A stretch of DNA of 24,000 nucleotides from Planctomycetota bacterium. Lineage in GTDB: Bacteria > Planctomycetota > Phycisphaerae > UBA1845 > UTPLA1. The notes under the pieces are model-generated. The model had not been told where the DNA came from. It was given only the letters and a program-made list of their open reading frames with translations, and ran no database searches. Position numbers and translations under genes: made by a program. Where the stretch lies: contig JACRIM010000058.1 of assembly GCA_016235815.1 (NCBI GenBank), forward strand, positions 136,041-160,040. Reading direction: 5' to 3'. This document shows positions 20,589 to 24,000 of this stretch, one piece after another; positions within the stretch are counted from its first letter, which is position 1; each line of letters begins with the position of its first letter.

Positions 20589-21752
20589 CTATTCAGCACG
20601 CCGGGAGTAAACCTGGTTCACTCGCTTTAACACCGCGCCTTTGGCCTTCTCGCTCGACTCTGCATTGGCGGCGACAAAATCAGTCAACGCCTTGGACGCT
20701 CGCTTCGGCCCCAGTGCGATCGCTGCATCGCGCCACAGAGTCCAGTTCGCTTTGCTGAGCTCCATCTGTCCGATTCGAAGGATGTTTGTGTCGATGGTCG
20801 TAACGACACTTGGCTTTACTCGACGCGATGGTGCACGCAGAATCTTGCGATATAACTGAAGTGCCTTGCGTATGTCTTCGTCAGACAGCCCTTGAGCGCC
20901 TAAATCAGGGACCGTGGTGCCATCGCCGTCAGCAAGTGCGATCAACTCCTCCGCCTCCTTGACCATCTGCGCGTAACCCGCAGCTTCATTTGGCTTCAAC
21001 TCCAGCAACTTCCCAAGAGACTCCAAATGCTTATGCAATTGGCGAATGCATTCGATCGCCTCTGAATCTCCTGGTTCCGAGACAGCGGCAATTGCTCCGC
21101 TTAAAAAAACAACGGAAAACGGCGTACACAAAGGACCGGATTTGATTCCATCTGTTTGGGTTTGCGCCGCCCGAAAATATTCGATGATGCCATCGCGCAG
21201 GAACTGACGAACATCCTCGGCCAGCAGATTCCCATCAGTGCATCCCTTAATGCCCGTCAGGGTCGCATGTTGCAAATTCAAGTTCAGCGTCGGATCGACA
21301 TCCACATAAAACATGTCAATCAAAGTTCGGGCGTCAGCGAGTGAGACCTGTTCGTCCGACCGCGAAATACGCCGAATCTCCGCCAACTTGGATCGAAGCT
21401 CCGGCCAAGGCAGTTTCTGTGTATCGATCTTGTCCGGTCCCTTCAATTCCGTTCGCCGAGCCTCGAGCTCGCGCAACGTCGCCTCAAGCTGTTCGGTCGG
21501 TTGCCCGCAGTCTTTGGCCCGCCGCAATTCTGCAACGACTGGTAAAATCTGTCGTTGGATTGCTTCCATTGCATCGCGTCGCTCCAACTCCGGCCCTTCC
21601 TTGGGTCGCTCTTGAAACGACGTGTCGATTTCGGGGATCTTGCGAATCGACGATGGAGGCTCAGCCGCGGCCCATGATCCTATCGAGAGAGCCAACGCAA
21701 TGGTCAATAATGCAGTCGTTTCCCCAATTGACAGATTTCTCGGCAATGACAT
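20589..21752 (-). CDS. hypothetical secreted protein (387 aa), no recognisable domain
   Basis: The ATG at 21752 is preceded by GGAGG 7 nt upstream; the track start at 21782 is a TTG. Signal peptide is MSLPRNLSIGETTALLTIALALSIGSWAAA. A charged, helix-prone N-terminal third follows (ELRRAKD...LEATLRELEARRTELK). Confidence 0.6.
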   Translation of the reverse strand: MSLPRNLSIGETTALLTIALALSIGSWAAAEPPSSIRKIPEIDTSFQERPKEGPELERRDAMEAIQRQILPVVAELRRAKDCGQPTEQLEATLRELEARRTELKGPDKIDTQKLPWPELRSKLAEIRRISRSDEQVSLADARTLIDMFYVDVDPTLNLNLQHATLTGIKGCTDGNLLAEDVRQFLRDGIIEYFRAAQTQTDGIKSGPLCTPFSVVFLSGAIAAVSEPGDSEAIECIRQLHKHLESLGKLLELKPNEAAGYAQMVKEAEELIALADGDGTTVPDLGAQGLSDEDIRKALQLYRKILRAPSRRVKPSVVTTIDTNILRIGQMELSKANWTLWRDAAIALGPKRASKALTDFVAANAESSEKAKGAVLKRVNQVYSRRAE

Positions 21753-21870
21753 GATCGCGCCTCCAACGAAATCGTATCGCAATTCATGAAATCATGCCGG
21801 CATCGCGTCAGCAGGGCAAGTGATTTATTGTGTAAAAATGCGCGTTGAAATGTATGGCTGGCTTGCCGCG

Positions 21871-21913
21871 CGCGCTCACGGCCCGGGGCGTTGTACCCCG
21901 GGCCGCGCGTTTT
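21871..21913. terminator. strong GC hairpin with a T-run on the + strand
   Basis: CGCGC (21871-21875), bulge tcac, GGCCCGGGG (21880-21888), loop cgttgta, CCCCGGGCC (21896-21904), GCGCG (21905-21909), TTTT (21910-21913). It lies 47-89 nt downstream of the small minus-strand ORF, but the U-tail is on the + strand. Confidence 0.55.
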
Positions 21914-21959
21914 GCCTGTGCTTTGGGATTTCGCTTGATGGAGTGGGTGGAGTGGGGCT

Positions 21960-22070
21960 TCAGCCGCCGATCAGGCCGCCGAAAAGGTTCGAGAGAATCT
22001 GCTGGACGAAGTCCCACAGACCAGAATAAAAGCCCAAAATACCCGACACAATCCCGAATGGATCGAACAT
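21960..22070 (-). CDS. small hydrophobic peptide, 36 aa (MFDPFGIVSGILGFYSGLWDFVQQILSNLFGGLIGG)
   Basis: The ATG at 22070 is preceded by AAGGAG with an 8-nt spacer (ggccacAAGGAGaaccgtgtATG), and the stop is TGA at 21960-21962. The 136-aa track ORF (21960-22370) has an implausible Gly/Arg/Cys-rich upstream part. The peptide has no basic residues and ends in a Gly-rich tail. Confidence 0.45.
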   Translation of the reverse strand: MFDPFGIVSGILGFYSGLWDFVQQILSNLFGGLIGG

Positions 22071-22139
22071 ACACGGTTCTCCTTGTGGCCCGATTCCTTT
22101 GTCCTGCCCGACACAGCGTCGGACCTCAAACGAGGATGA

Positions 22140-22156
22140 AGCATCACTCGTGCCAG
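22140..22156 (-). promoter_or_regulatory. candidate sigma54 (RpoN) -24/-12 promoter
   Basis: The reverse strand reads CTGGCACGAGTGATGCT. Against the consensus YTGGCACGrNNNTTGCW, 13 of 14 specified positions match, with correct GG-N10-GC spacing. The predicted start near 22129 gives a roughly 59-nt leader to the ATG at 22070. Confidence 0.5.
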
Positions 22157-22178
22157 GCATCGATCCACGTACGTAAAC

Positions 22179-22202
22179 GCGGTTTTTCGCTGCAAAAACC
22201 GC
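22179..22202. promoter_or_regulatory. 24-bp perfect palindrome GCGGTTTTT-cgctgc-AAAAACCGC
   Basis: 9-bp arms with a 6-nt centre. Its nearest edge is 22 nt upstream (minus-strand sense) of the sigma54-like element. It could be a protein-binding site (activator UAS) or an RNA hairpin. Confidence 0.4.
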
Positions 22203-22414
22203 ATTTCTCCCACACGGGACGGTGCGATTTCCCCACTCCCGCGCGCCGTTTGGGAACTCGTCCCCACACTTTTCGACCCAGCTCGCCTCGACGTCCACCC
22301 ACGCTAAGTCAACCCCCACTAAGTGGTTATGAAACCCGGCCCCTGCCCCACCACGCACTAAACAACCCACCCGAACTTGGACCGACCCGCCTCGTCGACT
22401 AAGCTTCCCCCCTT

Positions 22415-24000
22415 ATGAACATGATCGAACGCTTCGACACTGACACAACCGAAACGCAGGAATGGGTGGAGTCCATGGAGGCCGTCATGGCCCGCGAGGG
22501 GCCGGACCGCGCCCGCTATCTCATGGCAGCCCTGCATGACTATTGCCGCCGCAGACAGGTCGCCCTGCCGACGAATTTCAATACACCCTACGTCAACACG
22601 ATCCCGGTCCCCCAGCAGCCGCACTACCCCGGCGACCGCGACATCGAACGCCGCCTGAAAAGCATCAATCGCTGGAATGCGATGGCACTCGTCGTCCGCG
22701 CCAATCGCCGCTACTCCGGCATCGGCGGTCACATCTCGACCTACGCCAGCGCCGCCACCCTGCTCGAAGTCGGCTGGAACCACTTTTTCCGCGCCAACAC
22801 CACCGAGCGCACCGGCGATCAAATTTACTTCCAGGGCCACTCCTCCCCCGGCATCTATGCCCGCGCCTACCTTGCAGGCCGTCTCACCACGCAACAGATG
22901 CACAACTTCCGCCGCGAACTCGCCGTCGGCGGCGGCCTGTCCAGCTACCCGCACCCGTGGGGCATGCCGAACTTCTGGGAGTTCCCCACCGTTTCCATGG
23001 GCCTCGGCCCGTTGTCGGCGATTTACCAGGCTCGCTACAACCGTTACTTGCAAGACCGCGGCCTCGCCCAGACCGACCACTGCCATGTCTGGGCCTTCCT
23101 CGGCGACGGCGAAATGGATGAGCCGGAAAGCATGGGCGCGATCACCCTCGCGGCCCGCGAAGAACTGGACAACCTCATCTTCGTCGTGAATTGCAACCTC
23201 CAGCGCCTCGACGGCCCGGTCCGCGGCAACGGCAGCATCGTTCAGGAGTTGGAAGCCGCCTTTCGCGGCGCAGGCTGGAACGTCCTCAAGGTCCTCTGGG
23301 GCGACGACTGGGATCCCCTCTTCGACGCCGACACCGACGGCCTGCTGCCAGAACGAATGAGCAATGTCGTCGACGGCCAATGGCAGAAATACACCGTCGA
23401 AACCGGCCAGTACATCCGCGATCACTTTTTCGGAACCGATCCGCGCCTGTTGCAACTCGTCGAACACCTTAGCGACGAGCGCCTCTGCAAACTGCGACTC
23501 GGCGGCCACGATCCGGTAAAGGTCTACACCGCTTACAAAGCCGCCGTTGAGAATCAGGGGAAGCCGACCGTCATCCTCGCCCGCACGATCAAGGGCTACG
23601 GCCTCGGCGAAGCCGGCGAGGGTAAGAACATTACCCACCAGCAAAAGAAACTCAACGAAGAAGAACTCCGCCACTTCCGCGATCGTTTCGAAATCCCCAT
23701 CACCGATCGCGAACTGCGCGACGCCCCGTTCTACCGCCCACCCGAGGGCAGCCCCGAAATGAAGTATTTGCTCGAGCGCCGCATGTCGCTCGGCGGTTTC
23801 ATCCCGCGCCGCGTCGTTCGCGCCAAGCCGATTGAGGCCCCGCCCGACAAAACCTACGAAGAATTCAACAAGGGCAGCGGCGGCCGCGAAGTGTCCACGA
23901 CGATGGCCTACGTGCGCATCCTTTCTCGCCTTCTCGAAGACAAGAAAATCGGCAAGCTCGTCGTCCCCATCGTCCCCGACGAATCACGCACCTTCGGCAT
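22415..24000 (+). CDS. aceE: pyruvate dehydrogenase E1 component (homodimeric AceE type), 3'-truncated by the window edge
   Basis: This ORF is absent from the track because it has no stop inside the window. Hand translation from the ATG at 22415 gives MNMIERFDTDTTETQEWVESM...NTIPVPQQPHYPGDRDIERRLKSINRWNAMALVVRAN...GGHISTYASAATLLEVGWNHFFR...GHSSPGIYARAYLAGRL...FLGDGEMDEPES...NCNLQRLDGPVRGN. This is colinear with E. coli AceE. Confidence 0.93.
   Translation, partial: MNMIERFDTDTTETQEWVESMEAVMAREGPDRARYLMAALHDYCRRRQVALPTNFNTPYVNTIPVPQQPHYPGDRDIERRLKSINRWNAMALVVRANRRYSGIGGHISTYASAATLLEVGWNHFFRANTTERTGDQIYFQGHSSPGIYARAYLAGRLTTQQMHNFRRELAVGGGLSSYPHPWGMPNFWEFPTVSMGLGPLSAIYQARYNRYLQDRGLAQTDHCHVWAFLGDGEMDEPESMGAITLAAREELDNLIFVVNCNLQRLDGPVRGNGSIVQELEAAFRGAGWNVLKVLWGDDWDPLFDADTDGLLPERMSNVVDGQWQKYTVETGQYIRDHFFGTDPRLLQLVEHLSDERLCKLRLGGHDPVKVYTAYKAAVENQGKPTVILARTIKGYGLGEAGEGKNITHQQKKLNEEELRHFRDRFEIPITDRELRDAPFYRPPEGSPEMKYLLERRMSLGGFIPRRVVRAKPIEAPPDKTYEEFNKGSGGREVSTTMAYVRILSRLLEDKKIGKLVVPIVPDESRTFG

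Follow-up and report, generated by a model that had tools for sequence, protein, structure and literature searches.

A conserved gene for an acidic 36-residue micro-protein with a sigma-54-type promoter in one order of Phycisphaerae

We analysed a 24,000-nucleotide (nt) stretch of DNA from a Planctomycetota bacterium (the window; positions 136041-160040 of contig C41 in genome G000, which spans 4.58 Mb at 60% GC and is 95% complete), in which a 36-codon open reading frame (ORF) lies on the minus strand of the spacer beside aceE. Comparison with related genomes indicates that this frame is a real, conserved gene of an undescribed family limited to one order of Phycisphaerae. Our favoured reading, to which we attach a probability of roughly 0.55, is that of a monocistronic gene switched by sigma-54, whose product would be a leaderless, acidic, amphipathic helix of 36 residues acting at the membrane or envelope. 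The gene, its predicted promoter, the candidate upstream site, the putative hairpin in the 5′ untranslated region (5′UTR) and the predicted helix are all borne out by comparison across genomes; the membrane location and the envelope role of the product we infer.

Small proteins are under-annotated, and in Planctomycetota both they and the sigma-54 regulons are almost wholly unexplored; our literature search found no account of this family or of sigma-54-dependent peptides in Planctomycetes. The module described here is complete, compact and conserved, comprising a candidate activator site, a putative bending element, a promoter, a 5′UTR hairpin, a micro-protein and a presumed terminator, and the chemistry of its peptide is odd, being acidic, free of basic residues and rich in Gly and Phe. 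Cultured relatives, including Phycisphaerae bacterium RAS2, carry the module, so that direct testing is possible, and it could be used as a clean reporter of the signal sensed by its activator. Moreover, two paralogous subfamilies are defined, and the profile could be added to annotation pipelines.

Conservation of the 36-codon frame

The frame runs from an ATG at 22070 to a TGA stop at 21962-21960 and encodes exactly the peptide quoted in an initial annotation of this DNA, 36 residues with two Asp and no Lys or Arg, behind the strong Shine-Dalgarno sequence (SD) reported there (Table 1). A translated search of relatives showed that both other species of the genus (genomes G001 and G002) carry this frame without interruption, at 89% and 83% identity, and other genera contained short SD-preceded frames with the same motifs, an initial M-x-FD, a central LW/F-x-F and an (I/L)FGG close to the end. 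A first family profile matched 30 of the 49 genomes of the window's family, and a wider profile matched 34/48 family genomes, 13/72 of family f5, 4/101 of family f7 and 1/7 of family f2. At E up to 1e-4, 19 other families of the class (about 297 genomes) yielded no family member, so the profile is specific. None of the profile matches contained a stop codon. Differences were distributed over the three codon positions as 72:45:143, third positions changing most, and the pooled within-genus ratio of nonsynonymous to synonymous differences (pN/pS) was 0.31 (range 0.10-0.52). The initial annotation had proposed weighing conservation of the frame against synonymous drift, and the intact frames in relatives together with the pooled pN/pS settle that comparison in favour of a gene.

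Two subfamilies were distinguished. Type A comprises intact proteins of 34-39 residues, the window's included, and was compared at 21 loci, which represent 13 genera of the window's family; each genome has a single type A copy, at a syntenic chromosomal locus. Type B is a longer paralogue of 40-49 residues (consensus M(F/L)D(F/L)GG.F..F..SLFGF.N.LL..VFG.L..FF), more widespread than type A (families f1, f5 and f2), and many genomes carry both types; type B and atypical members formed a comparison set of 30 loci. In RAS2 (G036; Phycisphaerae, Planctomycetota), whose genome is complete, as is that of G007, type A lies at about 2,036,001-2,036,102 of the chromosome and a paralogue is annotated as hypothetical protein RAS2_02830. 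Type B loci (for example L011, L036, L046 and L242) often lie just 3′ of tpx-like genes and near a trxA or thioredoxin-like gene, as judged by eye, a neighbourhood that suggests a link to oxidative stress. No protease stood out among the recurring neighbours of type B, which were likewise identified by eye.

The 36-residue sequence is present exactly, without a name, as a called protein in public collections. The window peptide had no Pfam or NCBIfam match, a Pfam scan of 29 members returned chance-level matches only (best E 0.02), and the best match of a PDB profile search had an E of 3.8. A phmmer search of 1.84 billion representatives at E up to 0.001 recovered only two close relatives and phage tape-measure proteins. 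The tape-measure segments (PF10145 PhageMin_Tail and PF05017 TMP repeat) give several matches in each protein, spanning 25-29 residues at 28-39% identity; they differ in being repeated low-complexity, hydrophobic, Gly-rich helical segments within proteins of about 1000 residues. This likeness is one of composition and periodicity and is no evidence of common descent.

A sigma-54 promoter upstream of type A genes

Each of the 21 type A loci has a promoter of the form TGGCAC-N5-xTGC (consensus YTGGCACR-N4-WTGC) whose 3′ end lies 63-88 nt from the ATG; 0/30 type B or atypical loci have one. The window element CTGGCACGAGTGATGC (22156-22141) carries the -24 GG and the -12 GC at the canonical spacing, TGGCAC-N5-TTGC, and the sigma54-like promoter that the initial annotation had recognized, CTGGCACGAGTGATGCTT at 22156-22139, is accordingly one that every orthologous locus has kept. 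With a matrix built from the 21 orthologous promoters, the window's own included, it ranked fifth in G000. A relaxed promoter pattern was found 39 times genome-wide against about 21 expected, and this roughly 1.8-fold enrichment is too weak to be evidence on its own. G000 encodes one rpoN (one Sigma54_DBD match) and seven full Sigma54_activat enhancer-binding proteins, of which one has a GAF domain, one is of GAF-PAS type and five have receiver domains; none is encoded on the window's contig. The comparisons indicate that the dedicated sigma-54 promoter is real, transcription would be expected to start near 22129, and we infer dependence on sigma-54 in vivo.

Further upstream, the promoter-aligned type A regions contained a palindrome, TGGGCA-N4-TGCCCA, with at most two mismatches in 17/21 cases, compared with 2.8% of shuffles. 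Its start falls at -78 to -83 (13 loci) or at -111 to -116 (five loci, the window among them), and the window's candidate upstream activator site (UAS) begins 114 nt 5′ of the GG in its -24 element. The two position classes lie 33 nt apart, which equals three helical turns, so the same face of the helix is kept. A strict pattern combining palindrome and promoter yielded nine matches in the 49 genomes and none in reversed-pattern controls; six of the nine are the peptide gene, and the other three come from peptide-less genomes, where they stand before different small or secreted proteins. Under a looser combined pattern the peptide locus was the sole match in G000, G017, G036 and G007. We regard the palindrome as a conserved candidate activator site upstream of the promoter. 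Within the genus, the block TTCCCAAnCGGCGCGCGGGnGTGGGGAA is invariant across the three genomes, and the TGGGGAA that it contains may serve as an extra half-site.

In the peptide-less genomes G004 (C2:161056-161400) and G032 (C9:113300-113767), the same combination of palindrome and sigma-54 promoter precedes other genes, for a 57-residue protein with a signal-peptide-like start and for a larger secreted protein; the output of the activator appears to have been swapped during evolution.

The initial annotation had pointed to a different palindrome, at 22175-22206, as dedicated regulatory DNA. This palindrome is present; it is conserved in G000 and G001 and degenerate in G002, and the element conserved across genera is the 16-base-pair (bp) palindrome at 22251-22266. 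Other genera have A/T-rich elements of the TTTTCA..TGAAAA type where the window has its A/T-tract palindrome, and, since the latter is limited to the genus, it is best read as a bending or spacer element, probably one that bends DNA or resembles an integration host factor (IHF) site and is distinct from the activator site.

A candidate activator

The best intergenic match to the palindrome in G000 was TGGGCAGAATTGCCCG at C9:151720, about 70 nt before a gene for a GAF-AAA+-HTH_8 protein (C9:151790-153295). All three genomes of the genus have kept this site, and a second related palindrome lies 47 nt further upstream. The GAF-type protein is 69-98% identical in 48/49 family genomes, with an almost invariant HTH region, and this near-ubiquity leaves phyletic profiling unable to single out the activator. 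Its scores fall below the NCBIfam equivalog cut-offs (NifA, 426 bits against 529; NorR, 360 against 476). We put the chance that this protein activates the peptide gene at about even.

In 13-14 of 26 genomes the gene for the GAF-type protein is divergent to genes for an extracytoplasmic-function (ECF)-type sigma-like and an anti-sigma-like protein, as judged by eye from the sequences. Upstream of the activator gene at loci L184-L209, a conserved element, TGGGGCAATTTACCC, abuts a sigma-70-like TTGACA..N17..TAttGT sequence; it sits in the divergent spacer between the activator gene and the ECF sigma/anti-sigma-like pair and may be an autoregulatory operator.

The predicted product and its mode of action

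AlphaFold2, run without an alignment, predicted a single helix over residues 4-35 with a mean predicted local distance difference test score of 90.9. Lys, His and Cys are absent from all family members, whose net charge is -2 to -4; Arg accounts for 0.3% of type A residues, and Leu, Gly, Phe and Ile together for 60%. Small or polar residues recur every three to four positions (D3, G6, S9/G10, G13, S16/G17, D20, Q23/Q24, S27/N28, G31/G32) and line up as a single narrow polar stripe along a helix that is greasy elsewhere. Together with an 18-residue hydrophobic moment of 0.38-0.56, the predicted structure agrees with the hydrophobic, amphipathic-looking peptide described initially. The C-terminus varies in other genera, for example FGTTSPFA or FGPIQL.

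Transcription of the gene would require sigma-54 RNA polymerase and, in addition, an enhancer-binding protein bound to the TGGGGACGAGTTCCCA palindrome about 110 nt upstream, with the A/T-tract element between site and promoter probably aiding DNA looping. Given both requirements, the gene would stay silent until a specific signal activates that protein. The 5′UTR hairpin and the strong SD would then govern translation, and the GC-rich hairpin would end or stabilize the transcript. The product would most likely reside at the cytoplasmic membrane or envelope, either as an in-plane or oligomerizing helix or as a small partner of an envelope enzyme.

Several observations weigh against this proposal. 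Hydropathy peaks at a 19-residue Kyte-Doolittle mean of 1.0-1.8, which is marginal for a membrane-spanning helix, and a peptide without basic residues does not obey the positive-inside rule. The hairpin 3′ of the window gene has no U-run on the mRNA strand in G000. The GAF-type activator occurs also in peptide-less genomes, and outside the genus the conserved site 5′ of its gene resembles the palindrome loosely. Finally, the synteny with envelope genes described below may reflect vertical inheritance of a stable block, and it has been lost in the window's genus.

Of the three analogies offered by the initial annotation, that with stress-induced membrane peptides is the most apt, and its application here is conjectural. 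In Enterobacteria, the phage shock protein (Psp) regulon uses PspF, sigma-54 and an activator site with a bending element to drive small membrane effectors under envelope stress; PspG, of about 80 residues, has two membrane spans and basic residues, and PspF has no sensor domain. The module shares with this regulon the sigma-54 promoter, a candidate upstream activator site, a putative bending element and a putative small membrane-associated effector, a purely functional analogy. The two differ in that there is no sequence relation and that the candidate activator has a GAF sensor domain. Indeed, all seven activators of G000 carry GAF, PAS or receiver domains, so that none is a sensor-less protein of the PspF type, and a PF04012 search found no PspA/IM30 gene in this 95% complete genome.

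MgrB, PmrR, AcrZ, MgtS, KdpF and CydX are proteins of 26-50 residues with a single helix, often induced by stress, that bind a larger membrane protein; such enterobacterial small membrane proteins follow the positive-inside rule and have a classical hydrophobic span. The present family resembles them in being single-helix and missed by gene callers, whereas it is acidic, rich in Gly and Phe and amphipathic over its whole length. The initial proposal of a self-contained small-protein module that gene callers are prone to miss gains support from the sigma-54 promoter, the strong SD and the hairpin.

Transcript features and the possibility of a regulatory RNA

RNAalifold analysis of 14 orthologues placed a stem-loop of the form GYCYGRC / GYCGGGC in the 5′UTR, with seven consensus pairs, four of them bearing compensatory two-sided changes, and in most genera CGGGCTC or CGGGCC precedes the SD by 1-8 nt. 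A hairpin of -12 to -36 kcal/mol follows the stop codon at 3-100 nt in each of the 21 type A genes, and several of these hairpins carry a U-run. The hairpin that the initial annotation had placed downstream of the window gene is there (its 10-nt arms, 21879-21888 and 21896-21905, pair perfectly, and the stem can be extended to about 21870-21909), although it has its T-run on the plus strand only and no U-run on the mRNA strand. Folded whole, the transcript was not significantly more stable in minimum free energy than shuffles (z = -1.5).

These features raise the alternative of a dual-function RNA, in which a C/U-rich 3′UTR would pair with its own or other G-rich SD regions and the peptide would perhaps be a minor product. 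Among known sigma-54-dependent small RNAs, Qrr, GlmY, CrcZ and NrsZ are short, terminated and monocistronic and have an activator site of their own; the module resembles them in transcript architecture and in its C/U-rich 3′UTR. Type A 3′UTRs have a mean longest pyrimidine run of 8.9 (6.4 ± 0.37 in shuffles) and 3.67 anti-SD 4-mers (2.64 ± 0.42), type B showing neither excess; the 5′UTR structure is conserved; and another sigma-54 promoter in G000 has a perfect palindrome of the same type 130 nt on its 5′ side and leads into a terminated transcript, about 110 nt long, that has no ORF and carries a CCCUACUCCUCCCUUUCUUUCCC tract. What sets the module apart from these small RNAs is a coding frame under clear purifying selection: the protein is conserved across genera while the DNA has diverged, with pN/pS at 0.1-0.5, which argues for selection on the peptide itself. 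Furthermore, the C/U tract varies in sequence and position among genera, and the module matches no Rfam family. We consider the dual-function RNA an unlikely alternative.

Equally unlikely, in our estimate, is a broader proposal that joins it to a membrane-acting peptide. The module would then be the main, and in several genomes the sole strict, output of the GAF-sensor activator, and its transcript would be bifunctional, supplying an unusual amphipathic helix, free of basic residues, that acts on the membrane of a planctomycete lacking PspA and an anti-SD 3′UTR RNA, alongside ORF-less sigma-54 small RNAs that share the upstream site.

Genomic neighbourhood

We surveyed which genes recur among the 21 type A loci, to a distance of about 7 kb. 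A gene for a membrane glycosyltransferase of PMT_2 type (GT-C) lies directly upstream on the same strand in 16/21 genomes from many genera, ending 150-260 nt before the peptide start, and uppP (13 genomes) and a CDP-alcohol phosphatidyltransferase gene (nine genomes) lie 1-3 kb downstream. In three genomes aceE stands on the far side of the glycosyltransferase gene; the window's genus has lost that gene from the locus, so that aceE abuts the module. The only glycosyltransferase homologue of this type in G000 is 32% identical and lies on contig C2. The recurring neighbours included no transporter, immunity, protease or modification gene.

This neighbourhood makes it conceivable that the peptide is an accessory subunit or regulator of the PMT_2-type glycosyltransferase or of the undecaprenyl-phosphate cycle, in the manner of PmrR, MgrB or AcrZ, given how closely the glycosyltransferase gene precedes it and that uppP and the CDP-alcohol phosphatidyltransferase gene are nearby. 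The peptide gene, however, is served by a promoter and a candidate activator site of its own and would be transcribed separately from the glycosyltransferase gene, the module has stayed intact in the window's genus though that gene left the locus, and the gene order could be plain vertical inheritance. We hold such a role to be somewhat less probable than a regulatory RNA.

Exported-peptide, toxin and chance-frame alternatives

An exported leaderless amphipathic peptide, akin to a surfactant, a modulin or a bacteriocin, seems more doubtful still. The peptide has no signal peptide, forms a single amphipathic helix and appears to be tightly switched. Phenol-soluble modulins and delta-toxin of staphylococci are likewise leaderless amphipathic helices, of 20-44 residues, with the exporter Pmt and the regulator AgrA; beta-type modulins, of about 44 residues, are net negative and end in ...LFGF. 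The modulins share with the family the leaderless, amphipathic single helix and the single tight regulator, but they belong to a different phylum, show no homology and are regulated by AgrA rather than through sigma-54; no Pmt-like exporter is linked to the peptide gene. Against export in general, transporter, immunity and processing genes are absent from the recurring neighbours, the peptides are acidic whereas leaderless bacteriocins are cationic, and a single-copy gene that is vertically inherited and slowly evolving is unlike an antagonism locus. The acidity and the lack of a transporter or immunity gene among the recurring neighbours likewise leave little room for a leaderless (class IId-like) bacteriocin, an analogy from the initial annotation that is weak. 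As to a double-glycine leader or a precursor of a ribosomally synthesized and post-translationally modified peptide, no peptidase-transporter or modifying enzymes were found among the recurring neighbours, and, as the peptide ends at GG, no core peptide follows.

The third initial analogy, a type I toxin, would here be held by an antisense RNA ending at the shared hairpin. The peptide is small and hydrophobic, the T-run of the hairpin is on the plus strand, and a sigma-70-like match at 21728-21755 (+) points at it. The plus strand at 21760-21870, however, is not conserved even within the genus, which leaves no conserved antisense flank; there is no Rfam match and no basic-flanked helix; several orthologues have ordinary one-directional terminators; and the sigma-54 promoter already gives a tight off-state. 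The analogy is weak because the gene is single-copy, vertically inherited in a conserved syntenic chromosomal locus and under purifying selection, and its product is acidic, with no basic residue and no polar C-terminal tail. We therefore judge a type I toxin very improbable.

A chance open frame in a regulatory spacer, suggested by the shortness of the frame and by the many spurious frames of a GC-rich genome (here, for example, a 185-residue one on the plus and a 136-residue one on the minus strand), is hardly credible and is refuted by the comparative data, in that frame, start codon, SD, promoter and protein motifs are kept in dozens of genomes, no false profile match occurs in the roughly 297 genomes outside the order, and pN/pS is 0.31.

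Layout of the locus

The module is flanked by aceE (plus strand, ATG at 22415) and by a gene for a 387- or 397-residue secreted protein (minus strand, start at 21752 or 21782). On inspection of the sequence every part of the module named by the initial annotation was present, the amendment being that the strand is the minus one, and its 633-bp gap agrees with the TTG start of the neighbouring gene at 21782. The features are listed in Table 1.

Table 1 Positions of the predicted and conserved features of the module in the window
Feature	Position	Strand	Remarks
Candidate upstream activator site (UAS), 16-bp palindrome TGGGGACGAGTTCCCA	22251..22266	-	2 mismatches to TGGGCA-N4-TGCCCA
Putative additional half-site TGGGGAA, 3′ of the UAS palindrome	22229..22235	-	within block TTCCCAAnCGGCGCGCGGGnGTGGGGAA
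A/T-tract palindrome AAATGCGGTTTTT / AAAAACCGCGTTT, between UAS and promoter	22175..22206	-	13-nt arms, 92% complementary
Predicted sigma-54 (-24/-12) promoter CTGGCACGAGTGATGCTT	22139..22156	-	GG 22154-22153, GC 22142-22141
Predicted 5′UTR stem-loop GTCCGAC-gctgt-GTCGGGC	22106..22124	-	RNAalifold consensus
CGGGC(C/T)C motif, then Shine-Dalgarno AAGGAG (22084-22079), 8-nt spacer to ATG	22079..22094	-	
36-residue micro-protein coding sequence including TGA stop	21960..22070	-	homologues, open frames, pN/pS
3′UTR with C/U-rich tract CCCCACUCCACCCACUCC	21914..21959	-	
GC-rich hairpin, about 50 nt past the stop codon	21870..21913	.	-32.5 kcal/mol; kept in the 3 genomes of the genus

Homologues of the 387/397-residue secreted protein (window 20589-21782, minus strand) adjoin the peptide gene only in G000 and G001, and neither Pfam nor NCBIfam gave the protein a significant match (best E 0.15 and 0.11, well short of the cut-offs); it lies outside the conserved module. 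Two further frames were rejected, a 136-residue in-frame ORF beginning with a GTG at 22370 on the minus strand and an overlapping 185-residue ORF on the plus strand, neither being conserved beyond G000 and G001.

Other sigma-54 units in the genome

In a minus-strand unit at C45:98543-98802 of G000 (L160:4543-4802), a strong sigma-54 promoter, TTGGCACGCCATTTGCTCC, is preceded at a distance of 130 nt by a perfect palindrome, TGGGTAATGTTACCCA. The DNA 3′ of the promoter has neither an SD nor an ORF; it contains a C/U-rich tract, CCCTACTCCTCCCTTTCTTTCCC, and a canonical terminator, and Rfam gave no match. The unit has the appearance of a small RNA transcribed with sigma-54, about 110 nt long and bearing an anti-SD seed. 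At C40:9245-9620 and C40:6500-6740, both on the plus strand, the sigma-54 promoters CTGGCACGGTGATTGCTCC and CTGGCACAACTCGTGCTTA each lead into about 170-200 nt that contain no credible ORF and then into a strong intrinsic terminator, and the former has two palindrome-like sites upstream; both are candidate sigma-54 small RNAs.

Two other units would encode small proteins. At C9:~102650-102920 (minus strand), a sigma-54-like promoter precedes a 59-residue hydrophobic protein (MALMTTMTLTFGVLL...), with a CCCGG..CCGGG hairpin in the 5′UTR and an AAGGAG SD. The sigma-54-like promoter at C45:49400-49690 (plus strand) precedes a 50-residue, Cys-rich, acidic protein (...CRNDGCPCCCYEDDED) and has a palindrome-like site 56 nt upstream. 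Finally, good sigma-54 matches at C9:129904 (+) and C41:301099 (-) stand before genes whose N-termini are Hsp20-type-like and GroEL-like, respectively, a hint that sigma-54 may drive heat-shock genes in this lineage.

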